Of a stretch of DNA of 64,000 nt, positions 5,754-28,508 are shown in pieces; the first letter of the stretch is position 1; the number at the start of each line of letters is the position of its first letter. A model generated the notes under the pieces. It made no database searches. It had not been told where the DNA came from and was given only the letters and a program-made list of their open reading frames with translations. Source of the DNA: an uncultured Bacilli bacterium (GTDB taxonomy: Bacteria > Bacillota_I > Bacilli_A > RF39 > UBA660); the NCBI GenBank assembly GCA_910584085.1, contig CAJTZY010000002.1:61043-125042 (forward strand), written 5' to 3'. The translations under genes were made by a program, and so were the position numbers.

Positions 5754-7034
5754 TTGGATAAAATATTTAATAAGGCAGAAAATAGTTTATATGCAAATAC
5801 ATCTTATCCTCTTGATAAAAGTAATTGGGAAGAATATAGGATAAAAGATGATACTTTATTTAAAGATGAATCTGATTTAAGTTTATATATTCATATTCCG
5901 TTTTGTAATAAATTGTGTTCGTTTTGCGAGTACATTAAATTTAAAAAGGAAGATAATGAATATGAGAATAAATATCTTGATATATTAGAAGATGATGTAA
6001 ATAATTTTTTAAATACTAATGCATTTAGATTATATGGATTTGATATAGGAGGAGGAACTCCAACATCACTGAGTTTATATAATTTTAAAAGATTAATGTC
6101 TATAGCCACAAAAATAAATAATATAAAAAATAAAGTTGATGATTATGAACCAAGTATAGAAGCTACATTTGATACTATTGATGAGGAAAAAGTTAAATTA
6201 ATAAAAAATGCTGGTTTTAAAAGAATTTCATTTGGTATTCAAACAACCAATACTAAAATACTTACATGTCAAAATAGAAATGTAGTAACACTTGATAAAA
6301 TGATTTCAGTGTTTAAAATGTTAAGAGAAAATAATATTGAAAAAATAAATGTAGATTTTATGTATGGAATAGTTGGGCAAACATTAGATGATATTAAAAC
6401 ATCACTTGAATGTTTAGAAATTTTAAAGCCTGAGCATGTTACTTTATATGAAATGAGATATAATTTAATTAAAAATAAAACATTTATTTCTAAGGATGAT
6501 TTATTTAATCAATATAATCTTATATACATGAGATTAAAGGAATTAGGATATATAGGAAATTTTGGTAGTAATACATTTAGTAAAAAAAATGGTGACTTAG
6601 GTCTATCCTCATACCTAAGATACCGAATGATAAAAAATATATCATATAAGGGATTCGGCATATCTGCGCAATCTAAATCAAAAATTGGTATAAGTTATAA
6701 TATAGGTAAAAATCATGAAAGTATAGAAGATTGTTTCAAGGAAAATACATTTTATGCAGATGATATATATTTACTTCCAAAAGAAGAATTAGTGGCTAAG
6801 TATGTTATGATTAGTTTATATTATGGTCAATTTGATTTAGATATAATGAGTGAAATATTAGACTGTGATGCATTTAACTATTATAAAAATGAGTTTTATT
6901 ATTTAATTAATAATAATTATATAAAAGTGGATAAAAATAAAGTAAATGTTACACAAAAAGGGTTTAAGTATTATGGCGCTATAGGTTCACTATTTTATTC
7001 TAAAAAAGTAAGAAAATGGTTTATGGGGGATTAA
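5754..7034 (+). CDS. HemN/HemW-like (class C-type) radical SAM enzyme
   Basis: LYIHIPFCNKLCSFCEY (CxxxCxxC in the HemN-type context) plus the FDIGGGTPT motif. TTG start 7 nt after a GAGGT RBS. 426 aa. Confidence 0.7.
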   Translation: MDKIFNKAENSLYANTSYPLDKSNWEEYRIKDDTLFKDESDLSLYIHIPFCNKLCSFCEYIKFKKEDNEYENKYLDILEDDVNNFLNTNAFRLYGFDIGGGTPTSLSLYNFKRLMSIATKINNIKNKVDDYEPSIEATFDTIDEEKVKLIKNAGFKRISFGIQTTNTKILTCQNRNVVTLDKMISVFKMLRENNIEKINVDFMYGIVGQTLDDIKTSLECLEILKPEHVTLYEMRYNLIKNKTFISKDDLFNQYNLIYMRLKELGYIGNFGSNTFSKKNGDLGLSSYLRYRMIKNISYKGFGISAQSKSKIGISYNIGKNHESIEDCFKENTFYADDIYLLPKEELVAKYVMISLYYGQFDLDIMSEILDCDAFNYYKNEFYYLINNNYIKVDKNKVNVTQKGFKYYGAIGSLFYSKKVRKWFMGD

Positions 7035-7035
7035 T

Positions 7036-7938
7036 ATGTATGAAACAATAGAAATATTTGGTCAAAAGGTAGATATACGAAATAATAATTGTACTAGATG
7101 TGGTGAAATTCCTACTAGAACTCCAATGAAATTAAACTTATATATTAAATTAACTGATATGTGTAATGCAAAGTGTGAAATGTGTAGCAATAGAGGAAAT
7201 GAAAAAACAAGTAAATTAGATTTAGAAAAATTAAAAATGGTAGTAAAATACTTGGATAATAGAAATTTAATAAATCGAATCGGAATAACAGGTGGAGAGC
7301 CAATGTTAAATATGAGTAAATTAAATGATTTACTTAATATTATATTTGATGTAAAAAAAGATGCTATGGTTACAATTAATACTAATGGATTTAATATAAA
7401 AAATATTTTATATTTAGATAGTATAGATAAAGTAAATGGTATTCATATAAGTAGACATCATTACGATGATGAAATAAATAATGATTTCTTTGGAATATCA
7501 ACAGTAACTAATAGTGATATTGAATATATGATGAATAAATTAGATAATAAAAAATTGTTAAGATTAAATTGTTTATTAATGAAAAACTATATTAATAATA
7601 TTAAGGAGGTTTCTAATTATTTGGAAACAGCTGCTAACTTAGGTATTTTTAGGGTAGGTTTTGTTTCATTAATGAGGGTAAATGATTTTTCAAAAGAAAA
7701 CTTTATAAATTTTAATGATATATTTAGAGACTTACCATCAAATTACTGTAAGACAGATAAATTAAATGATTTAAATATATGTGAGTGTGAAAATGGTGTT
7801 TACTTATCTAATAATGGAGATATTGTTGAATACTATGCTAGGATGACAAAGGAATTAAACTGTGAGTATGCAAGACAATTTGTCTATACATCAGATAATA
7901 AATTAACAGTTGGTTTTAATAAAAAATCATTAATATAA
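7036..7938 (+). CDS. small radical SAM enzyme (about 300 aa, no evident SPASM domain)
   Basis: LTDMCNAKCEMC (CxxxCxxC) and GITGGEPML. Its start is 1 nt after the preceding stop, which suggests translational coupling. Confidence 0.7.
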   Translation: MYETIEIFGQKVDIRNNNCTRCGEIPTRTPMKLNLYIKLTDMCNAKCEMCSNRGNEKTSKLDLEKLKMVVKYLDNRNLINRIGITGGEPMLNMSKLNDLLNIIFDVKKDAMVTINTNGFNIKNILYLDSIDKVNGIHISRHHYDDEINNDFFGISTVTNSDIEYMMNKLDNKKLLRLNCLLMKNYINNIKEVSNYLETAANLGIFRVGFVSLMRVNDFSKENFINFNDIFRDLPSNYCKTDKLNDLNICECENGVYLSNNGDIVEYYARMTKELNCEYARQFVYTSDNKLTVGFNKKSLI

Positions 7939-8743: not shown

Positions 8744-9283
8744 ATGAATGAAAAACTAATTGAAAAATCTATTTATGAATTATTAATAGCGTTAGGAGAA
8801 AATCCAAATAGAGATGGTTTAAAAGAAACACCTAAAAGGGTTGCTAAAATGTATTCTGAAATTTTAAATTATCCAGAATTTAACTATACTGCATTTGAGA
8901 ATAAATATGATGATTTGGTTATTGTAAAGAATATTGAATTTTGTTCAATGTGTGAACATCACTTAATGCCATTTTATGGTGTTGCGCATATAGCATACAT
9001 TCCAAATCATAAAATTATAGGGTTAAGCAAACTTGCAAGAGTTGTTGAGAAACATGCAAGAAGACTACAAGTTCAAGAGAGAATGACAGAAGATATTTTT
9101 AATGACTTAAAGGAAAATCTTAATACTGCAAATATTGCAATTTATATTGAGGCCAAGCATATGTGTATGATTGCCAGAGGCGTAAAAAAGGAACTAACTA
9201 GTACAGTTACTGTAAAATTAGATGGTGAATTTAAAAGTAACAAAAAAAACGATTTTTACTTTCTGATTGGCAAGGGGATTTAA
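8744..9283 (+). CDS. folE: GTP cyclohydrolase I
   Basis: FCSMCEHHLMPFYG...GLSKLARVVE, the FolE zinc-site and active-site signature. 179 aa. Confidence 0.9.
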   Translation: MNEKLIEKSIYELLIALGENPNRDGLKETPKRVAKMYSEILNYPEFNYTAFENKYDDLVIVKNIEFCSMCEHHLMPFYGVAHIAYIPNHKIIGLSKLARVVEKHARRLQVQERMTEDIFNDLKENLNTANIAIYIEAKHMCMIARGVKKELTSTVTVKLDGEFKSNKKNDFYFLIGKGI

Positions 9284-9284
9284 A

Positions 9285-10262
9285 ATGAATTATGAACAAT
9301 ATATGGAAATTGCTTTAAAAGAAGCAGAAAAAGGTGTTCAATTAGGGGAACAACCATATGGGGCTGTATTAGTTGCTGATGGTAAAATTGTTTCTGCCGC
9401 ACACAATGAAGTAATATCATCAAGAAATTATTTAAATCATTCAGAGATAGTAGCAATAAACAAGTATTTAGGGACTATGCAAAGTAAACCAAAAGATTTA
9501 ACTTTGGTTACTACTTGTGAACCTTGTGTAAAGTGCTTTGGAACTGCAATCAAATTAGGTGTAAATAGATTTGTTTATGGCTCAAGTCTAGAAACAGCGA
9601 TTGGTTATGGTTCAAACGACATTAATCTATGTCTTGATGATTTTAAATCAATATATAATATTGAAATTATTGGTGGTGTTCTTAAAGATAAATGTGATAT
9701 GTTGCTAGAACGCTTTTATTTAAGAGATAATATTGTTACATACTCTAGTGGAAATAATGAAGAAATTTTTTGGATGAATAAGGCCTTAGAAATAGGAAAA
9801 AGTGGTATGATTGAAAAAGGAGAATTACCAATAGGTGTTATTTTAGTAGCGGGTAAAAGGATATTAAGTAAGACTTGTACAATGACATATACACTTAATT
9901 CTCCTATTACGCATGGCGATTTTATGGCATTATATGATGCCCAAAGAGAAGTATATTCGGTAAATTGTGAAAGACCCCTAGTTTTATATAGTACACTTGA
10001 ACCGCATTTATTAGGTTTTGGAGCAGCAATAAAATGTAAAGTTGATAAGGTTGTTTTCGGTCTTGAAGCAATACCTGATGGAGGTTCTTGCTATTTACCA
10101 TATATAGTTGGAATTAAGGAAAGAATACCAAAAGTAGTTGGTGGTGTTTTAAGAGAAAATCAATATAAATTGATGAAAGAATTTTTAGCTACACATGATG
10201 AAAATCGCGTTGGATATGCATATGCAAAAAAGCTTGTTAAGTTATATGAAAGTGAGAAATAG
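9285..10262 (+). CDS. tandem cytidine/deoxycytidylate-deaminase-fold protein (active TadA/GuaD-like N-domain plus degenerate second domain)
   Basis: N-domain carries HSE...CEPCVKC (H[AS]E and PCxxC zinc motifs). The C-domain has TLEPH...AAIKC in place of the zinc ligands. Start moved to ATG 9285, which has a GGGGA RBS; the ORF-track start at 9267 lies inside folE. Confidence 0.7.
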   Translation: MNYEQYMEIALKEAEKGVQLGEQPYGAVLVADGKIVSAAHNEVISSRNYLNHSEIVAINKYLGTMQSKPKDLTLVTTCEPCVKCFGTAIKLGVNRFVYGSSLETAIGYGSNDINLCLDDFKSIYNIEIIGGVLKDKCDMLLERFYLRDNIVTYSSGNNEEIFWMNKALEIGKSGMIEKGELPIGVILVAGKRILSKTCTMTYTLNSPITHGDFMALYDAQREVYSVNCERPLVLYSTLEPHLLGFGAAIKCKVDKVVFGLEAIPDGGSCYLPYIVGIKERIPKVVGGVLRENQYKLMKEFLATHDENRVGYAYAKKLVKLYESEK

Positions 10263-11852: not shown

Positions 11853-13391
11853 ATGGGAAATGAAATGTTGTCACTTAAAAGAATATTAAATAGATATGAA
11901 TACTTGAAAGATAGGAAAATAGGATTTCCTTATATTGGTTCTAGGAGTGATGGTGAGTCATTTTCTAAAGAAGTAAAAAAGGTTGCAGATGGATTTGAAC
12001 TTTATGATAGTTTAATCTCTACTTTAAATAATGATTATACAAGTGAGATAAATTTAACAAGTGGAAATCCTATGAAATATAAACCTTTTCCACCTGCTAT
12101 AAAGCAAATTTATAATGTTTTAAATGGAACAAAACTTAATAAATATCCTTATTCAGAGGGTGATGATAGGGTAAGAATAGAACTTTTAAAATATATTGAA
12201 CAGGAAGGGTTTATAAACACAAATCCATATAAGTATGACGATATAGATGAAAAAGGATTATCAATTCATAATTTAACATTTACTGTTTCAACTTCACATG
12301 CTTTTGGTCTTGTTCTTGATATAATTGCTAGACCACACGATGTTGTACTTATGACTGGTCCAAATTATGGTTTATTTGGATTCAAACCTGAAAGAATAAA
12401 TGCTAAAGTTGAAGTTATTGCTTTAGAAGAAGAGGATAATTATTTAGTAAATCCTAAAAAGTTAGAAAATAGGATAATGGAAATAAATTTAAATCTTGAA
12501 AAAAGTTATAAGGGTAAACTTGATTATACACCTCAAGTTGTTGCATTTGTAAATAGTAATCCTTGTAATCCAACTGGTAAAGTAATGGGTCAAAATGAAA
12601 CAAATATTTTAACTGGAATAGGTAATGTTTGTGCAAAATTAGGTGTATTTGTCATAGATGATTTAGTTTATAGAGATTTAACATATAATAAAGACAATAT
12701 TGCAAAACCAATAGCTACGATAGACGGAATGTTTAAAAATACAATATCTTTATTTGGATTATCAAAAGCATATGGTCTTGCAGGACTTAGAGCAGGATTT
12801 GTGGTTGCTGATGAAGTAATAATAAGAGAAATGATAAATAGGATATTTCAGGAGATAGATGCTGTACCATCTATAATAGGAGAAGCATTAAAAGGGGCTT
12901 TTAACGTCTCTAATAAAAGAAATATAGAATATAATAAATACTTTACCAAATTAAATAAAGAGTATGAATTTAGATATAATATTTTGAAAGCTTTTGTTAA
13001 TGGAATAGATAGTATAAAGAATAGTAGTTTAAGGAATGAAGTTTATAAATATATTAAAAAGAATATATTAGATAAAAAAGACTTATATATTTTAAAAAAT
13101 GGAATAGATAATATAGAAATAAGGAGTTCTTTAGAACCACAATCAGGATTTTTTGCCATAATTGATTTTACTAAAATTAAGGGTAAAAAATATCATGATA
13201 GGGTAATTTTAACAGAAGAAGATTTAATTAAATTTTTCTATAATGAAATAAAACTTAGATTTATAATTGGAAAGTCTATGTTGTGGCCAAATGAGGAGGA
13301 TCTTATTGGAAGAGTTACATTTGCTAAGGAAAGAAAAGATATTATTAAATACTGTTTAGCAATTAATGATGCCTTAAAAAAATTAAATTAA
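11853..13391 (+). CDS. PLP-dependent aminotransferase class I/II with extended termini
   Basis: NPCNPTG and SKAYGLAGLRAGF (lysine-PLP region SKxxxxxGxRxG). 512 aa. Confidence 0.75.
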   Translation: MGNEMLSLKRILNRYEYLKDRKIGFPYIGSRSDGESFSKEVKKVADGFELYDSLISTLNNDYTSEINLTSGNPMKYKPFPPAIKQIYNVLNGTKLNKYPYSEGDDRVRIELLKYIEQEGFINTNPYKYDDIDEKGLSIHNLTFTVSTSHAFGLVLDIIARPHDVVLMTGPNYGLFGFKPERINAKVEVIALEEEDNYLVNPKKLENRIMEINLNLEKSYKGKLDYTPQVVAFVNSNPCNPTGKVMGQNETNILTGIGNVCAKLGVFVIDDLVYRDLTYNKDNIAKPIATIDGMFKNTISLFGLSKAYGLAGLRAGFVVADEVIIREMINRIFQEIDAVPSIIGEALKGAFNVSNKRNIEYNKYFTKLNKEYEFRYNILKAFVNGIDSIKNSSLRNEVYKYIKKNILDKKDLYILKNGIDNIEIRSSLEPQSGFFAIIDFTKIKGKKYHDRVILTEEDLIKFFYNEIKLRFIIGKSMLWPNEEDLIGRVTFAKERKDIIKYCLAINDALKKLN

Positions 13392-22419: not shown

Positions 22420-22683
22420 TTGAATAAAGAAGAAACAAAATATATACGTCCTAGTAATCAAGAGTTAAATAAGAATTATAATAGCAGTATTGACGTACCT
22501 ATTTGGGAAAAATACACACTTACTATTGAAGAAGCTTCTAAATACTTCCGTATAGGCGAAAATAAGCTCCGTAAACTTGCAGAAGAAAATATCACGTCAA
22601 ATTGGGTTATTTTAAACGGTAATCGTATCCAAATCAAACGAAAACAGTTTGAAAGCCTAATTGATAAGCAAAACACAATTTAA
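22420..22683 (+). CDS. xis: excisionase, Tn916 Xis-like
   Basis: [31 protein letters not shown]...[13 protein letters not shown] closely matches the Tn916 Xis sequence as recalled. TTG start with a TAAGGAGA RBS. Confidence 0.8.
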
Positions 22684-22761: not shown

Positions 22762-24054
22762 ATGACTAAAAGACGTGATAATAGACAACGTTTATTACAT
22801 AATGGAGAGAGCCAAAGAAAAGACGGAAGATATGCTTTTAAATATATTGATACTTTTGGAAAACCACAATTTATATATTCGTGGCGACTTGTACCAACGG
22901 ATAAGACACCAGTAGGTAAGCGAAATGACTTATCTTTACGAGAAAAAGAAAAGATTTTACAAAGAGATATTGACGACGGAATAGACACGATAGGTAAAAA
23001 AATGACAGTATGTCAATTGTATTCAAAACATACACGACAACGTGGAAATGTTAAGGATAATACTGAAATAGGACGTAATAGACTTATGAAGCTATTAGAA
23101 GAAGATAAGCTCGGTCATTGTGCTATTGAAAAGGTAAATATATCCGATGCAATAGATTTTGTAATTCGTATGAAAGAAAAAGGAATAGCTTATAAAACTA
23201 TAAGTAATGATAAAAGGTCTTTAAAGGCCACTTTTTATACAGCTATACGAAATAATTGTATAAGAACTAACCCTTTTGATTTCCAAATCAGTGAGGTACT
23301 AAAAGACGATACAAAGCCAAAAGTACCACTTACACAAGAACAAGAGGATAGTTTGTTATTATTTATTCAAAGTGATAATGTTTACTATAAATACTATGAC
23401 GATGTTATTCTCCTTTTAGAAACTGGACTACGTATTTCTGAATTTTGTGGACTAACTGAAAAAGACATTGATTTTGAAAACCGACTAATCAATGTAGACC
23501 ACCAACTATTAAGAAACAAGAAGCGAGGCTACTATATTGAAGAGCCTAAAACTGAAAAAGGAAAGCGAAAAATACCTATGAGCGAAAAGGCTTATATAGT
23601 ATTTAAACGTGTAATAGAAAGAAGCAAGAAATATGATAAGTCAATAACTATTGACGGATATAGTGGCTTTATATTTATAAAAAATAATGGTTATCCTAAA
23701 GTATGTTGTGATTATGATAGTGTATTTCGTGGTATAAAGAAGAAGTATAATAAAAAAAGCAATAGTATAGCTCTACCCAATGTTATGACACCTCATACAC
23801 TACGTCATACATTTTGTACGAACTGGGCTAATGCAGGTATGAACCCTCATACTCTACAATACATAATGGGTCATGCAAATATTCTTATTACACTAAGTTA
23901 TTATACACACCCTACCTATATGTCGGCTCAAGCTGAAATGGAGAGAATACGAAAACAACAACAAATTTACTACTCTTGTACTACTTTTGAAAGCGAAAAT
24001 ATAAAAAGTAATAACAATTTATGTGAATATCTTCCACAATTAAAAATGTCTTAA
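22762..24054 (+). CDS. int: tyrosine integrase, Tn916 Int-Tn family
   Basis: N-terminal MTKRRDNRQRLLHNGESQRKDGRYAFKYIDTFGKPQFIYSWRL and C-terminal HTLRHTFCTNWANAGMNPHTLQYIMGHANI...YYTH (R-H-R-Y catalytic region) align along the whole length to Int-Tn as recalled. Confidence 0.9.
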   Translation: MTKRRDNRQRLLHNGESQRKDGRYAFKYIDTFGKPQFIYSWRLVPTDKTPVGKRNDLSLREKEKILQRDIDDGIDTIGKKMTVCQLYSKHTRQRGNVKDNTEIGRNRLMKLLEEDKLGHCAIEKVNISDAIDFVIRMKEKGIAYKTISNDKRSLKATFYTAIRNNCIRTNPFDFQISEVLKDDTKPKVPLTQEQEDSLLLFIQSDNVYYKYYDDVILLLETGLRISEFCGLTEKDIDFENRLINVDHQLLRNKKRGYYIEEPKTEKGKRKIPMSEKAYIVFKRVIERSKKYDKSITIDGYSGFIFIKNNGYPKVCCDYDSVFRGIKKKYNKKSNSIALPNVMTPHTLRHTFCTNWANAGMNPHTLQYIMGHANILITLSYYTHPTYMSAQAEMERIRKQQQIYYSCTTFESENIKSNNNLCEYLPQLKMS

Positions 24055-24196
24055 AACCTTATAAATAAAGGATATAAAGACATTTAAGAATATTTAAAAA
24101 AATAGTTAAAAATTATATATTATTTTCATACTAAAAATAAATAAATTAAAAATTGCTAATAGATTAAAAATAATGTATAATTAGATTGGTGATTGT

Positions 24197-25027
24197 ATGA
24201 ATAATGTATATAAATCAGAAGAAGAATTTTTAAAAAATTACAATTCAGATGATTTTGAAAAATTATCTATGACAGCTGATATATTAATATTTAGTGTATC
24301 TAGTGAAGAAAGTGATAATTACAGGAAGACTGATAAAAAGAAAATGAGTATATTACTTGTAAAGAGAAATAATTATCCTTTTAAGGATAAATGGTGCTTG
24401 CCAGGTGGTTTCGTAGATATAAACGAGGATTTAGATGATGCACCTGTTAGAATACTTAAAAGGGAAACTAATATAGATAATATATATCTTGAACAATTAT
24501 ATACATTTGGTGATACTAAAAGGGATCCACGTATGAGAGTTGTATCTACTTCTTATATTGCTCTTATAGATAAAAATAGATTGGATAAGAATATAAGTGG
24601 TGATTCTTCATGGTTTGATATAGCGCTTTTAGAAGAAAAGGATAATATCGTTGATATAGTTTTAGATAATGGCCGTGAAACAATTAAGTTTACTATAGAG
24701 AAGATATTAAGGGAAAAAACTACTGATAGATATTCATTTAAAGTACTTGAAAATAAATCTTTGGCTTTTGATCATCCTATTGTTATATTATCTGGAATAG
24801 AAAGACTAAAGAATAAAATAGAGTATACTGATATAGTATTTAATATGATGCCAGAGTTATTTACTTTAGGTGAACTTCAACAGGTTTATGAAGTAATTCT
24901 TGGTAAAAAATTATTAGATCCAGCTTTTAGAAGAATAATTGCAAATAAAGTTGAGAAAACTAAGAAAATGAAAACAGGTGGAGGACATCGGCCATCCGCA
25001 CTCTTTAAATATAAAAATAATTTATGA
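24197..25027 (+). CDS. nrtR: NrtR-like regulator: degenerate Nudix domain fused to a C-terminal winged helix
   Basis: GGFVDINEDLDDAPVRILKRETN has Gx5E but lacks the canonical RE spacing. C-terminal ...ELFTLGELQQVYEVILGKKLLDPAFRRII resembles the NrtR wHTH. 276 aa. Confidence 0.6.
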   Translation: MNNVYKSEEEFLKNYNSDDFEKLSMTADILIFSVSSEESDNYRKTDKKKMSILLVKRNNYPFKDKWCLPGGFVDINEDLDDAPVRILKRETNIDNIYLEQLYTFGDTKRDPRMRVVSTSYIALIDKNRLDKNISGDSSWFDIALLEEKDNIVDIVLDNGRETIKFTIEKILREKTTDRYSFKVLENKSLAFDHPIVILSGIERLKNKIEYTDIVFNMMPELFTLGELQQVYEVILGKKLLDPAFRRIIANKVEKTKKMKTGGGHRPSALFKYKNNL

Positions 25028-25061
25028 GAGATTAACTTTTCTTTTGATTGTGGGTGAAAGC

Positions 25062-25541
25062 ATGAAAGTAACACATGAATTTGGCCCCTTTTATGATGAA
25101 CATTCTAAAATATTAATATTAGGTAGTATTCCATCACCAAAATCTAGAGAACTTGGGTTTTATTATATGCACCCTCAAAACAGATTTTGGAGTGTTTTAT
25201 CTCATATATTTGGTGAGGATATTCCAGTTACAATAATAGATAAGAAGAAATTTTTAAAAAGACATAATATTGCTTTATGGGATGTTTTAGAGTCTTGTGA
25301 AATAGAAGGTGCGAGTGATAGTAGTATAAAGGATCCAATACCTAATGATATTGAAAAAATATTAAAATCATCAAAGATAGAAAAAATTTATACAACAGGC
25401 ATGACTGCTTATAAACTTTATAATAAATATATATTTAAAAGTGTAGGAATTGATGCAATTTGTTTACCTTCTACTTCAAGTGCGAACGCTAAAATGAATT
25501 TTGATTCATTAGTTTACGAATATAAAAAAATATTAGATTGA
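25062..25541 (+). CDS. uracil-DNA-glycosylase-superfamily DNA glycosylase (family 6/HDG- or Mug-like)
   Basis: ILILGSIPSPKSRELGFYYMHPQNRFW (G-S-x-P-S motif A). Start moved to ATG 25062, which has a GGGTGA RBS; the ORF-track start at 24978 overlaps the nrtR-like gene. Confidence 0.6.
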   Translation: MKVTHEFGPFYDEHSKILILGSIPSPKSRELGFYYMHPQNRFWSVLSHIFGEDIPVTIIDKKKFLKRHNIALWDVLESCEIEGASDSSIKDPIPNDIEKILKSSKIEKIYTTGMTAYKLYNKYIFKSVGIDAICLPSTSSANAKMNFDSLVYEYKKILD

Positions 25542-25566
25542 ATTCTAATATTTTTAGTATGTTCGC

Positions 25567-25595
25567 TTGTATATCACTTGCACCTATAGTATAAT
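25567..25595 (+). promoter_or_regulatory. promoter of toxin-like ORF copy 1 (TTGTAT, 17 nt, TATAAT); the copy-2 equivalent is at 25954-25982
   Basis: TTGTAT at 25567-72, 17-nt spacer, TATAAT at 25590-95. The same arrangement is offset 387 bp in copy 2. Confidence 0.6.
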
Positions 25596-25656
25596 GTATA
25601 TGGAATATCAGTTGTTGAGTGTCTGCCTTCCAACTTAAATGTTAGGAGGTGATAAG

Positions 25657-25749
25657 ATGAAAAAAAGAATTTTCATTATAAAAATTCTAAGATACATCGC
25701 TATCATTTTACTACTTCTTATCACAATGATAATAGTAATAAAAAAATGA
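25657..25749 (+). CDS. 30-aa hydrophobic peptide, type I toxin-like (copy 1), not in the ORF track
   Basis: AGGAGGTGA RBS 7 nt upstream. MKKRIFIIKILRYIAIILLLLITMIIVIKK: a single TM helix with Lys at both ends. Followed by the hairpins TTAATCTTtgcaAAGATTAA and ACATTCA-N12-TGAATGT plus a T-run. Confidence 0.6.
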   Translation: MKKRIFIIKILRYIAIILLLLITMIIVIKK

Positions 25750-25868
25750 CACTTAATCTTTGCATTAAGATTAAATGTCTGAACAAATTAATTTTTGAGT
25801 AGACATTCAACATTGCAAAACTGAATGTTCCACTTTTTTATTTTATGCAGATTTCTCTTGACATATTC

Positions 25869-25897
25869 ATCTTAACATAATTTGTACTATTTGTCAA
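25869..25897 (-). promoter_or_regulatory. convergent antisense promoter (copy 1): TTGACA, 17 nt, TAAGAT on the minus strand; copy 2 at 26252-26280
   Basis: Minus-strand TTGACA is the reverse complement of 25892-25897; the -10 TAAGAT is the reverse complement of 25869-25874. The predicted antisense transcript of about 120 nt ends at the T-run overlapping the peptide stop codon (around 25742). Confidence 0.5.
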
Positions 25898-26044
25898 ACA
25901 TAATATAAACAAAAAAATATTGGATTGAAGTCTAATATTTTTAGTATGTTCGCTTGTATATCACTTGCACCTATAGTATAATGTATATGGAATATCAGTT
26001 GTTGAGTGTCTACCAAATCTCTTATAGGGAGGAGGTTGATAAAA

Positions 26045-26137
26045 ATGAAAGCTAAGACTTTTATTGTGAAAGTTTTAAAGCTCATTGCTATCATTTTATT
26101 TCTCCTAATCATTATGATAGTAGTAATAAAAAAATGA
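26045..26137 (+). CDS. 30-aa hydrophobic peptide, type I toxin-like (copy 2), not in the ORF track
   Basis: GGGAGGAGG RBS. MKAKTFIVKVLKLIAIILFLLIIMIVVIKK. Same downstream hairpins and T-run as copy 1. Confidence 0.6.
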   Translation: MKAKTFIVKVLKLIAIILFLLIIMIVVIKK

Positions 26138-26366
26138 CACTTAATTCAATATTGAATTAAATGTCTCTTTGATTAATCATGGTAGACATTCAACATTGCA
26201 AAACTGAATGTTCCACTTTTTTATTATATGCAAGTTTTCCTTGACATATTCATCTTAACATAATTTGTACTATTTGTCAAACATAATATGCAAACAAAAA
26301 AATAAGATTTTGCCATAAATTTTTCATATATTTGATAATTATGATATAATAATCCTGGTGATGTTT

Positions 26367-28508
26367 ATGCCAGAGTTACTTGCTCCAGTTGGAAATATGG
26401 AATGTTTAAGAGCAGCAATAAATGCAGGTTGTGATGCAGTTTATATGGCTGGTAGGAATTTTGGTGCTAGAAGTTTTGCTGGTAATTTTTCACATGATGA
26501 GTTAATAACTGCTGTAAATACTTGTCATTTATACGGTGTAAAAGTGTATATAACTGTAAATACACTAATACTTGACACAGAAGTTGATAGATTTATGGAT
26601 TATATCGATTTTATACATAAGATAGGTGTAGATGCCGTTATAATGCAGGACATTGGAATGATAGATTTAGTTAGAAAAACTTATCCTAATTTAGAAATAC
26701 ATGCCTCAACACAGATGCACATTCATAATTTAGAAGGTGTTAAATTATGTGAGAAGCTTGGAATAAAGAGAGTAGTTCTTGCACGTGAAACTCCTATAGA
26801 GCTAGTTAATGAAATAAAAAAGAATACTAATCTAGAAATTGAAATATTTATTCATGGTGCCCTTTGTATGAGTTATTCTGGTGAGTGTTTGATGAGCGCA
26901 CTTATAGGAAATAGAAGTGGAAATCGTGGAACATGTGCCCAAAGTTGTAGACAATCTTATAGTTTAGAAATAGATGGAAAACTTGTAGAAAAGGATAAAT
27001 ATTTACTTAGTACTAAGGATTTAAATACACTAGAAAATATCCATGAATTAATAGATATGGGTATTCATAGTTTAAAAATTGAGGGTAGAATGAAAAGGTC
27101 AGAATATGTGTATTTAGTTACAAGTATATATAGAAGAGCAATTGATAATTATAAAAATTATGGCGAAACTAAAATAACTGATACAGATATTAAAAATATA
27201 AAGAAAATATTTAATAGGCAATTTACTAAAGGGTTTCTATTTAATGAAGAAAATGATTTATATGTAAATACTTATAGACCAAATCATATGGGAATTAATA
27301 TAGGAGAGGTAATAGATTATAAAAATGGAAAAGTTACTATTAAACTTAGTGATGATTTAAATATAAATGATGGAATTAGAATAATAGGGTGTAAGGATTT
27401 TGGTTTTAATGTAACAGTAATGTATAAAAATGGTAACATGATTGAGTTTGCTAGAAAGAGTGATATAGTAACTATACCTATAAAAGAAAAAGTAGATTGT
27501 AAAAGTGAGGTAGTAAAAACTACTGATTTTAGAGAGTTAAAAGATATAGCAGAAAAAATTAGGATTAATAAAAGAATTAATATAAATATTAAATGCGTAC
27601 TTAAAATAGGTGAACCTATAAAATTAATATTAGATGATGGCGTAAATGTTATAGAAGATATTAGTGACTATATTGTAGAGGGCGCTATTAAAAATGAAAC
27701 AACAGCTGATATGGTTTATGAGCAAATCAATAGATTAGGAGATACAATTTATAAACTTGATAATTTTGAGATAATAAAAGATGAGTGCATATTTATTCCA
27801 ATATCTAAGTTAAATGAGTTAAGAAGAAAAGTTATACACACTTTAAATGAAAAAAGAATGTACAAAACAAATTATAAAAAGTCTAATTATGAGATATGTG
27901 TGGATAACTTTAAAAGGGAATGCAAAAAGACTGTACAAATAAGTACTTATGAACAATATTTAAATATTTTAGATAAGTTTGACACAATATATGTGGATAA
28001 CTACTCTTTATTTAATAAATTAGATGACAAAAGGTGTGTATTAAAACTAAATAGAGTAATCGAACATTTAAAAGATTATGATATGAGGCTATTAGTTAGT
28101 GAGCTTGGTAGTGTTTATAAATATAAAGATATAGATACTGATTTCTCACTTAACGTTACTAATTCATATAGTGTTGCTTTTTTGCACAGTATTGGTGTAA
28201 ATAAGGTTACATTATCTTGTGAATTAAATTACAAACAAATAAAAAAATTAGTAAGTGCTTATGAAAATAGATATAATAAGCATCCAAATCTGGAAGTTAT
28301 AGTAGAAGCTAATGTAGAAGCTATGATTTCTAAATATAATATGTTAAAAAAATATAATAAAAAAAGTGGATATTTAATTGATAGATTTGGTAATAAGTAT
28401 AAAATTGTAGTTTGCGATGGACTTATGCACATATATGACTATAAAAGAAGAAAATTAGAAGAAAACTACTTTGAAATAGGCATTAATAATACTCGTATAA
28501 ATTTATAA
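26367..28508 (+). CDS. peptidase U32 family protein (collagenase-like, long form with C-terminal extension)
   Basis: MPELLAPVGNMECLRAAINAGCDAVYMAG and GRMKRSEY, typical of U32. About 714 aa. A hairpin terminator ATAGAGTTAAATCTCTATTTTT follows at 28512-28535. Confidence 0.8.
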   Translation: MPELLAPVGNMECLRAAINAGCDAVYMAGRNFGARSFAGNFSHDELITAVNTCHLYGVKVYITVNTLILDTEVDRFMDYIDFIHKIGVDAVIMQDIGMIDLVRKTYPNLEIHASTQMHIHNLEGVKLCEKLGIKRVVLARETPIELVNEIKKNTNLEIEIFIHGALCMSYSGECLMSALIGNRSGNRGTCAQSCRQSYSLEIDGKLVEKDKYLLSTKDLNTLENIHELIDMGIHSLKIEGRMKRSEYVYLVTSIYRRAIDNYKNYGETKITDTDIKNIKKIFNRQFTKGFLFNEENDLYVNTYRPNHMGINIGEVIDYKNGKVTIKLSDDLNINDGIRIIGCKDFGFNVTVMYKNGNMIEFARKSDIVTIPIKEKVDCKSEVVKTTDFRELKDIAEKIRINKRININIKCVLKIGEPIKLILDDGVNVIEDISDYIVEGAIKNETTADMVYEQINRLGDTIYKLDNFEIIKDECIFIPISKLNELRRKVIHTLNEKRMYKTNYKKSNYEICVDNFKRECKKTVQISTYEQYLNILDKFDTIYVDNYSLFNKLDDKRCVLKLNRVIEHLKDYDMRLLVSELGSVYKYKDIDTDFSLNVTNSYSVAFLHSIGVNKVTLSCELNYKQIKKLVSAYENRYNKHPNLEVIVEANVEAMISKYNMLKKYNKKSGYLIDRFGNKYKIVVCDGLMHIYDYKRRKLEENYFEIGINNTRINL

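Follow-up and report, generated by a model that had tools for sequence, protein, structure and literature searches.

A tandem pair of predicted type I toxin–antitoxin-like modules, built like bsrG/SR4, in an uncultured Bacilli bacterium

Among the described toxin–antitoxin (TA) systems of type I, those in which an antisense RNA overlaps the 3′ part of the toxin messenger RNA (mRNA) offer the closest comparison for the locus described here, a pair of tandem 387-bp modules in a 64,000-nucleotide (nt) stretch of contig CAJTZY010000002.1 (positions 61,043 to 125,042; hereafter the window) from an uncultured Bacilli bacterium. One toxin of this kind, TxpA, is 59 amino acids (aa) long. In the bsrG mRNA, nt 1-35 pair with nt 232-262 (helix P1), the Shine–Dalgarno sequence (SD) lies in a double-stranded stem and the stop codon in stem-loop SL3, and the two RNAs first touch where the SR4 terminator loop meets that of the stop-codon stem-loop; SR4 promotes decay of the mRNA and also inhibits its translation (PMC3834814). 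In Bacillus subtilis, txpA is silenced by RNase III through RatA (PMC3531473), and YonT is 58 aa long (PMC5848175). Other designs include hok/Sok and aapA1/IsoA1, where the full-length mRNA is inert through 5′–3′ long-distance pairing and the antisense RNA starts by kissing loops (PMC5416894), and the Fst systems, where regulatory pairing lies outside the overlap (T1TAdb).

We assign a probability of roughly 0.75 to the reading that each 387-bp unit is a chromosomal type I TA-like module of the 3′-overlap class, built like bsrG/SR4. This had been proposed in a preliminary description of the sequence, and all of the structural elements listed there are present in both copies (Table 1); the structural predictions are now backed by comparative evidence on the open reading frame (ORF), the antisense promoter, its terminator and the sequestration of the SD. 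Both generic ingredients of a type I system can be recognised in the sequence—a peptide gene, and a pairing-capable antisense gene with its own promoter and terminator—and the folding models reproduce the architecture of the BsrE-G-H group (5′–3′ helix, SD in a stem, stop-codon stem-loop and 3′ overlap). Since the architecture agrees and sequence homology does not, the modules are, judged by these features, a new family of a known kind, 3′-overlap type I TA. The duplication itself is recovered by the program TRF as an array at 25524-26304 (period 387 bp, 2.0 copies, 85% matches); by block, repeat finding gives the two copies 97% identity in the promoter/leader, 77% in the ORF and 91% in the 3′ part.

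A search with a 43-aa extended form of ORF 2 returned one match, the metagenomic gene call P0001 on contig L002 (L-numbers denote related loci), which carries two tandem modules, one with an ORF 2 homologue and one with a different hydrophobic peptide and the same 3′ flank. The flank common to these two modules supplied a pattern for a family search (TTTTTTATT-N12-16-CTTGACATATTCAT) of a collection holding one genome per species. At least 120 loci match, most with the same layout, and its recurrence in more than 100 independent loci argues that the arrangement is not due to chance. All loci were gathered through this pattern, which lies in the antisense 5′ region, and the family counts below are among the matches listed. 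Against the family alignment, nhmmer gives E = 6e-43 for predicted mRNA 1 and 2e-47 for predicted mRNA 2. Relatives had been expected among Clostridia; the labels are instead Bacilli, Tenericutes and Erysipelotrichaceae, the carriers being nearly all metagenome-assembled genomes (uncultured Bacilli, Tenericutes, Mollicutes, Erysipelotrichaceae, Coprobacillus sp. CAG:605 and Candidatus Ventrenecus) from the gut of rabbit, goat, chicken, mouse and human. The family, unseen by annotation, occurs in more than 120 species-level genomes of little-studied gut Bacilli; these genomes are small and often have several copies. A module downstream of a tRNA-Ala gene (L089) has one mismatch in the 14-mer of the pattern (ATGGATATGTCAAGG), and the exact-pattern scan therefore undercounts the family; with up to two mismatches allowed in the 14-mer, the count within the fetched loci rises to 132.

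Both copies in the window have the TTGTAT-17-TATAAT promoter noted earlier, and the 55-nt leader holds with the transcription start site (TSS) set 7 nt after the −10 hexamer. Across the family TATAAT is found in 59 of 77 modules and a 17-nt spacer in 55 of 75, and the end of the −10 hexamer sits 6-8 nt before the first long-range-paired nucleotide in 65 of 77. The sequence suggests a promoter of the sigma-A type, near consensus at −10 and weak at −35, that would drive an mRNA of about 240 nt. The ribosome-binding site (RBS) is strong in each copy (AGGAGG at 25644-25649 and GGGAGGAGG at 26027-26035), and the two 30-aa ORFs encode exactly the peptides of the preliminary description, of the single-helix type with Lys-rich ends. 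An intact hydrophobic ORF of 24-34 aa stands behind a GGAGG-type SD in about 91 of the 112 modules that have enough upstream sequence. These peptides fall into at least five subfamilies (Table 1), and in every one a charged N-terminus (M-K/R-K-K/R-D/E) is followed by some 20 hydrophobic residues, the end being usually rich in Lys. Within subfamilies the second codon positions are the least variable, and 45-69% of single-nucleotide codon differences are synonymous, versus 21-23% expected at random. This conservation and synonymous excess bear out the proposed coding ORF, which is very probably translated and, to judge from these substitution patterns, under purifying selection.

The gene call P0001, a JGI prediction at L002:1866-1976, reads the TGA of the ORF 2 homologue as Trp (…VIKKWHLIRIW) and runs on to the end of the contig, apparently through use of genetic code 4. 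TGA is a stop in the window, where it closes, for example, the glycosylase gene that precedes the modules (25539-25541).

The two hairpins and T-run described downstream of the peptide ORF are present in each copy, and the other RNA features listed in the preliminary description stand; it had, though, overlooked the dominant one, a long-distance 5′–3′ helix. Some 27 bp long, this helix links the predicted +1 to bases just before the terminator U-tract, closing the whole mRNA. It ends 0-2 nt before the U-tract, its core is the inverted repeat I11, and both halves of the region of the plus-strand terminator hairpin have their complement in the leader. The minimum free energy (MFE) of the mRNA is −69.3 kcal/mol in copy 1 (z = −8.7 relative to shuffles) and −73.7 kcal/mol in copy 2 (z = −8.4). 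Duplexes of leaders with their cognate 3′ untranslated regions (UTRs) have a mean energy of −34.2 kcal/mol (n=81), compared with −21.5 kcal/mol for leaders with the 3′ UTR of another subfamily (n=713; p = 2e-37) and −16.1 kcal/mol with shuffled 3′ UTRs (n=405).

Covariation points the same way. From a MAFFT alignment of 74 mRNAs (alignment A1), RNAalifold recovered a 12-bp core of the helix with 11 of its 12 pairs compensated. When the structure of copy 2 was projected onto the same alignment, 83% of cells were paired, versus 37-49% with partners slid by 1-3 columns, a figure that is favoured by projection from a single member; the less biased count of double-change cells was 444, versus 60-106 in the slid controls, and the covariation score 0.376 versus about 0.10 in controls. 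None of 500 shuffles equalled the observed value for four of the five measures, and 19 of 500 did so for the count of further pair types. Covarying positions make up 13 of 14 in the helix core, and compensatory changes are found in 12 of 12 pairs of hairpin 1, the stem-loop at the stop codon, so that the covariance analysis proposed earlier for the 3′ overlap finds covariation in both elements. The helix is assigned to the plus-strand RNA because G-U pairs are frequent. The suggested pairing of a leader CCUUC segment with the RBS is also borne out: CCUUCC pairs with the SD in the MFE fold and the pairing is kept across the family, with 87% of cells paired and with changes that are only one-sided (U/C opposite an invariant G). 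The covarying structure provides a ready search model together with natural compensatory mutants, which could show how 5′–3′ closure, hiding of the SD and 3′ antisense pairing cooperate.

On the opposite strand, the TTGACA-17-TAAGAT promoter reported earlier is found in both copies, with a TG upstream of the −10. At positions outside the search pattern the family logo reads TTGnnA-17-TGnTAnnAT, with 1.2-2.0 bits at the promoter positions (TTG, A, TG, TAT), 0.2-0.5 bits in the spacer and a varying −10 centre; conserved hexamer positions around a variable spacer are the signature of a real extended −10 sigma-A promoter. Transcription would start about 7 nt past the −10, near 25862 and 26245. The predicted antisense RNA opens with a small 5′ hairpin, CAAG-GAAA-CUUG, whose stem and loop vary in some loci; an A-rich segment follows, then the complement of the mRNA's terminator region and finally its own terminator. 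Its fold has z = −3.7 for RNA 1 and −4.0 for RNA 2. A terminator scan of 25000-26900 found only two sites, the minus-strand hairpins 25779-25748 and 26165-26136, each followed by ATTTTTTTAT; shuffles of the same region yield 0.4 terminator-like sites on average. The A-run at the ORF end (Lys codons at 25738-25747 in copy 1) is the template for the U-tract of the antisense terminator. This A-run is kept even in subfamilies whose ORF stops upstream of it and where it is non-coding, which argues that it serves the antisense terminator. The claim of a cis-antisense RNA gene of about 120 nt at the 3′ end of the toxin mRNA thus gains a conserved promoter and terminator, and by geometry the two transcripts would overlap by about 100 nt. 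The antisense RNA is a perfect complement of the last ~100 nt of the mRNA (3′ UTR and last codons), and the leader pairs with the same region through several wobbles, so that the leader is in effect a weakened copy of the antisense binding domain.

Table 1. Coordinates in the window of the elements of modules 1 and 2 and of neighbouring genes, followed by the peptide subfamilies.
Feature	Coordinates	Strand	Remarks
Toxin promoter 1	25567-25595	+	-35 TTGTAT 25567-25572, 17-nt spacer, -10 TATAAT 25590-25595
Toxin promoter 2	25954-25982	+	TTGTAT-17-TATAAT
Predicted toxin mRNA 1	25602-25841	+	~240 nt, TSS G25602 to terminator U-tract
Predicted toxin mRNA 2	25989-26224	+	~236 nt
ORF 1	25657-25749	+	30 aa, MKKRIFIIKILRYIAIILLLLITMIIVIKK, stop TGA
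ORF 2	26045-26137	+	30 aa, MKAKTFIVKVLKLIAIILFLLIIMIVVIKK, stop TGA
Long-distance helix, 5′ strand, mRNA 1	25602-25627	+	GGAAUAUCAGUUGUUGAGUGUCUGCC
Long-distance helix, 3′ strand, mRNA 1	25797-25839	+	overlaps terminator hairpin ACAUUCA...UGAAUGU; U-tract 25834-25839
SD-sequestering hairpin, mRNA 1	25626-25649	+	anti-SD CCUUCC 25626-25631 : SD AGGAGG 25644-25649
Parts of mRNA 2		+	5′ helix strand 25989-26014; SD 26027-26035; 3′ strand and terminator 26181-26214; U-tract 26217-26222
Hairpin 1, module 1	25748-25779		minus strand, antisense terminator; plus strand, predicted kissing-loop target; at stop codon
Hairpin 1, module 2	26136-26165		minus strand, antisense terminator
Antisense promoter 1	25869-25897	-	-35 TTGACA 25897-25892, 17 nt, TG-extended -10 TAAGAT 25874-25869
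Antisense promoter 2	26252-26280	-	TTGACA-17-TG-n-TAAGAT
Predicted antisense RNA 1	25738-25862	-	~125 nt; ends inferred from promoter and terminator
Predicted antisense RNA 2	26126-26245	-	~120 nt
Tn916-type Xis	22420-22683		upstream of repeat
Tn916-type Int	22762-24054		upstream of repeat
NrtR-like Nudix regulator			flanking gene, between Int and modules
Deoxyinosine/uracil-type DNA glycosylase	ends 25541		TGA 25539-25541; last codons overlap unit 1
U32 peptidase gene	26367-28508	+	same strand as modules, directly downstream
Peptide subfamily A (this window)			MK[TK][KR]TFI.KVL[KR][LY]IAIIL...; 30 aa
Peptide subfamily B			M.KKDFLI.SLIIIIFLL...; 24-27 aa
Peptide subfamily C			MRKSEKYLCTIIILLIIVILIILIKIVPTV; 30 aa
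Peptide subfamily D			MKKKDLLISFLILIIILLIVSLMILCIKK; 29 aa
Peptide subfamily E			MTKRE.SQFIIILLLFF...; 25 aa

From this architecture, and by analogy with bsrG/SR4 and txpA/RatA, a sequence of events can be proposed. The toxin mRNA would be stable yet poorly translated, and the antisense RNA would be produced in excess. First contact would be a kissing interaction of the antisense terminator loop with hairpin 1 at the stop codon, which would still be exposed in the closed mRNA; the antisense RNA would next displace the wobble-weakened leader from the 3′ region of the mRNA, and the resulting duplex of about 100 bp would be cut by RNase III, so that no peptide is made. A fall in the antisense RNA level would allow synthesis of the peptide and, through it, membrane damage.

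The modules share with bsrG/SR4 and bsrE/SR5 a convergent cis-antisense RNA over the 3′ part of the toxin mRNA, and with bsrG/SR4 also the long 5′–3′ helix, the SD in a stem, the stop-codon stem-loop opposite the antitoxin terminator loop, and a small single-helix peptide with a Lys-rich C-terminus. They differ from bsrG/SR4 in several respects: neither peptide nor RNA has detectable sequence similarity; the 3′ strand of the long helix is here the terminator region, whereas P1 and the terminator SL4 coexist in bsrG; the antisense RNA is about 120 nt long compared with 183 nt for SR4; prophage-like elements do not carry the modules; and the models here show no antisense-induced change at the SD. 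With txpA/RatA and yonT/SR6 they share the overlap of toxin mRNA and antisense RNA at their 3′ ends and the expectation of RNase III cleavage, but those toxins are about twice as long, lie on prophages and have no homology to the peptides described here. No match to a curated model, any for TxpA or RatA included, was found in Pfam, NCBIfam or Rfam, the last searched over 24000-28000.

Fst/RNAII, from par of pAD1, resembles the modules in having a toxin of about 30 aa, in occurring in Firmicutes and in its convergent transcription. The Fst mRNA has a 5′ end protected by an intramolecular helix and a sequestered RBS, and both are found here. Fst has a shared bidirectional terminator and uses 5′ direct repeats as its pairing site, whereas the modules have two separate unidirectional terminators and a true overlap of about 100 nt carries the complementarity. 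No Pfam family matched the peptides, the Fst toxin models included, in a comparison that also addressed Ldr. With hok/Sok and aapA1/IsoA1 only the principle of long-distance pairing is in common: the antitoxin there targets the 5′ part of a 3′-processed mRNA, whereas the antisense gene here lies at the 3′ end and targets the 3′ partner of the long-distance helix itself, and the hosts of those systems are Proteobacteria and Campylobacterota, not Bacilli.

Several points weigh against placing the modules among type I TA systems. Toxicity of the peptide and transcription of both strands stand as predictions from sequence. In the folding models the long-distance helix and the terminator hairpin of the plus strand draw on one set of nucleotides and would thus be mutually exclusive, and in partition-function models the mean P(unpaired) of the SD hardly moves, being 0.16 in the full-length mRNA, 0.14 with the antisense target blocked and 0.17 in the 3′-truncated mRNA. 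That the antisense 5′ region is conserved follows in part from the way the family was collected, and the search pattern misses any toxin gene that has no antisense partner. Pfam, NCBIfam (E up to 1 for the window peptides and up to 10 for the other subfamilies), PADLOC and PHROGs gave nothing meaningful for the peptides of all subfamilies; Rfam cmscan of 24000-28000 (E up to 10) gave only three chance matches to small nucleolar or small nuclear RNAs; blastn of the repeat to plasmids and phages gave short chance matches only; and the 3′-flank pattern had 0 matches in the 2.9 million viral contigs of IMG/VR. The modules thus appear, from these searches, not to be on phages or plasmids, unlike many classical type I systems.

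An SR4-like translational switch at the SD was considered and found no support, the SD being about equally sequestered with or without the target blocked; this favours decay over a translational switch. Ten representative peptides were all absent from an exact look-up in a collection of 15 billion proteins, and nothing came of a literature search, whether for the peptide sequences or for type I TA in combination with Erysipelotrichaceae.

A stronger version of the type I reading, in which the modules are a distinct design and more than another type I family, is conceivable but doubtful as a whole. In one part of it the cis 5′–3′ helix and the trans antisense RNA may compete for a single 3′ site that is also the terminator; if so, the fate of the toxin mRNA could respond in a switch-like manner to the antisense:mRNA ratio. 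In another, one conserved RNA chassis may carry at least five diverged peptide subfamilies. Finally, the chassis may repeatedly settle about 70 nt behind transfer RNA (tRNA) or transfer-messenger RNA (tmRNA) genes, perhaps through spread by recombination in conserved tRNA trailers, or perhaps with tRNA read-through acting as an extra antitoxin.

The alternative that survives best takes the peptide for a small membrane protein without toxicity, one that might for instance modulate a membrane complex; it would be tuned by a cis-antisense RNA and would not be part of an addiction or toxin module. We regard this reading as unlikely. It would agree with purifying selection on the peptide, with the absence of homology to known toxins, and with the location of the modules among housekeeping genes and not mobile elements, the protein-coding neighbours being diverse housekeeping genes with no recurrent mobile-element gene. 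However, three layers of repression (the closed 5′–3′ helix, the hidden SD and the strong antisense promoter) suit a product that is kept off, the layout mirrors bsrG/SR4, and several paralogues per genome and tandem arrays occur as in known type I toxins (PMC2887945). About 19% of the copies, moreover, are without an ORF or start codon and still keep the antisense part. In L038 and L062 the start codon is lost (ATG to ATA, or a 1-nt deletion), and about 19 of 112 modules are 5′-truncated remnants in which the promoter and SD are gone, as is some or all of the ORF, and which retain the 3′ UTR, both hairpins and the antisense unit with its promoter (L009, L017, L020, L031, L036, L037, L039, L040, L042, L048, L065, L067, L070, L071, L077, L100, L110, L114 and L121), a one-sided count in that the collection was gathered through the antisense region and the converse class is outside its reach. 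By sequence these remnants look like orphan antitoxin genes, and antisense-only remnants are as expected if the peptide is harmful, as the type I TA reading has it.

A second alternative, and a very unlikely one, makes the modules a structured non-coding repeat—like a repetitive extragenic palindrome or a miniature inverted-repeat transposable element, or a small RNA gene associated with tRNA trailers—in which the short ORF is incidental. The very strong RNA structure and the high conservation of non-coding segments would suit it, as would the constant spacing between about 30% of the copies and tRNA 3′ ends: 35 of 117 modules have a tRNA or tmRNA gene no more than 126 nt downstream, and for 29 of these the distance is 67-83 nt (mode 70-72 nt). 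In every case the gene converges on the toxin gene, being on the antisense-RNA strand, and eight kinds are represented (Leu, Thr, Met, Arg, Ala, Lys, Phe and tmRNA). The codon-position pattern and synonymous excess point instead to translation, the invariant GGAGG is correctly spaced, the frame is intact in about 91 of 112 copies across five diverged subfamilies, and neither a flanking target duplication nor a repeat of the tRNA end was found.

Examples of tRNA-adjacent modules are L034:1194-1374, L036:3412-3596, L081:3273-3750 and L094:2776-2972; the window copies have no adjoining tRNA. Between tRNA and module lies a trailer hairpin (AAACTCGAAC..GTTCGAGTTTT), which also occurs behind tRNAs without a module and is therefore a generic terminator that these genomes use for tRNAs. 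Trailer and hairpin, though conserved, were accordingly rejected as part of the module, being mostly generic tRNA trailer and terminator; recombination through the generic trailer could move modules between tRNA loci. An integrated island was likewise rejected, no repeat of the tRNA 3′ end being present upstream of tRNA-adjacent modules. About half of the modules have their antisense −35 (TTGTCA/TTGACA) in the loop of a perfect hairpin with A-/T-run flanks (AAAAACGACTTTTTGACAAGTCGTTTT), as at L036:3448-3485 and L094:2812-2850; the window copies are without it. From its sequence this hairpin looks like a bidirectional terminator that would insulate the module from the tRNA operon. At L108, downstream of a tRNA-Leu trailer, there is a segment like the antisense body (AAAAAAGGACATTCAATAATGCATGTTGAGTGTTGCC) without the usual antisense promoter region, and an antisense RNA may be made there as part of the tRNA transcript.

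That the modules are leader-peptide or attenuator elements controlling the U32-peptidase gene is barely plausible: they stand directly upstream of that gene and on the same strand, but each unit is closed by its own terminator, the downstream genes differ in nearly all related loci, and many modules face a convergent tRNA. Least credible of all, with next to no chance of being right, is that an artefact of assembly has doubled a single-copy locus. An independent assembly of the region does break 32 nt past the glycosylase gene, at the start of the repeat, but real repeats break contigs in just this way, the difference between the copies is 15% overall and 23% in the ORF block, each of the two peptide variants recurs in other species, and tandem pairs and one triple are found in six other loci. 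The preliminary description had named this artefact as an outcome that would undo it; the recurrence of tandem arrays elsewhere, together with the 15% divergence, shows that the repeat is not one. The independent assembly is L001 (Logan ERR3199593), which covers the Xis-Int-NrtR-glycosylase region and whose last stretch, 6480-6512, extends 32 nt past the glycosylase.

The six loci with pairs or the triple are L013, L028, L049, L076, L080 and L089, and L080 has both peptide variants of the window in tandem. Between the two window copies, identity is 100% over the 45 nt upstream of the TSS (versus 73% to the best other locus), 91% in the 3′ tail (versus about 80% to other loci) and 77-82% in leader, ORF and 3′ UTR. 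Copy 2 is closer to modules of other species, at 93-95% in the leader and 92% in ORF DNA (the latter to L080, L118 and L064). The recurrence of both ORF types elsewhere, and of the two together in L080, indicates that their divergence predates this genome; with flanks closer between the copies and the centre closer to other species, the copies are old variants with homogenised flanks. On these identities the flanks look like the product of gene conversion or partial duplication. The idea of diversifying copies therefore stands as to the near-identical flanks and diverged ORFs, and fails as to diversification after a recent duplication.

No module beyond these two turned up in the window, either with nhmmer or in a generic scan for small hydrophobic ORFs. 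Unit 1 begins inside the last codons of the glycosylase gene, as described earlier, and the Tn916-like neighbour is present upstream in the form of Xis and Int, with two genes standing between Int and the repeat. An AT-rich inverted repeat of 33 nt (82% complementary; 25359-25391 and 26315-26347) brackets the array, one arm within the glycosylase gene and the other just past module 2, and may be due to chance. Further upstream of the Xis/Int pair are two adjacent radical-SAM proteins (5754-7938), with a deaminase-domain protein (9267-10262) and then an aminotransferase (11853-13391) after them.

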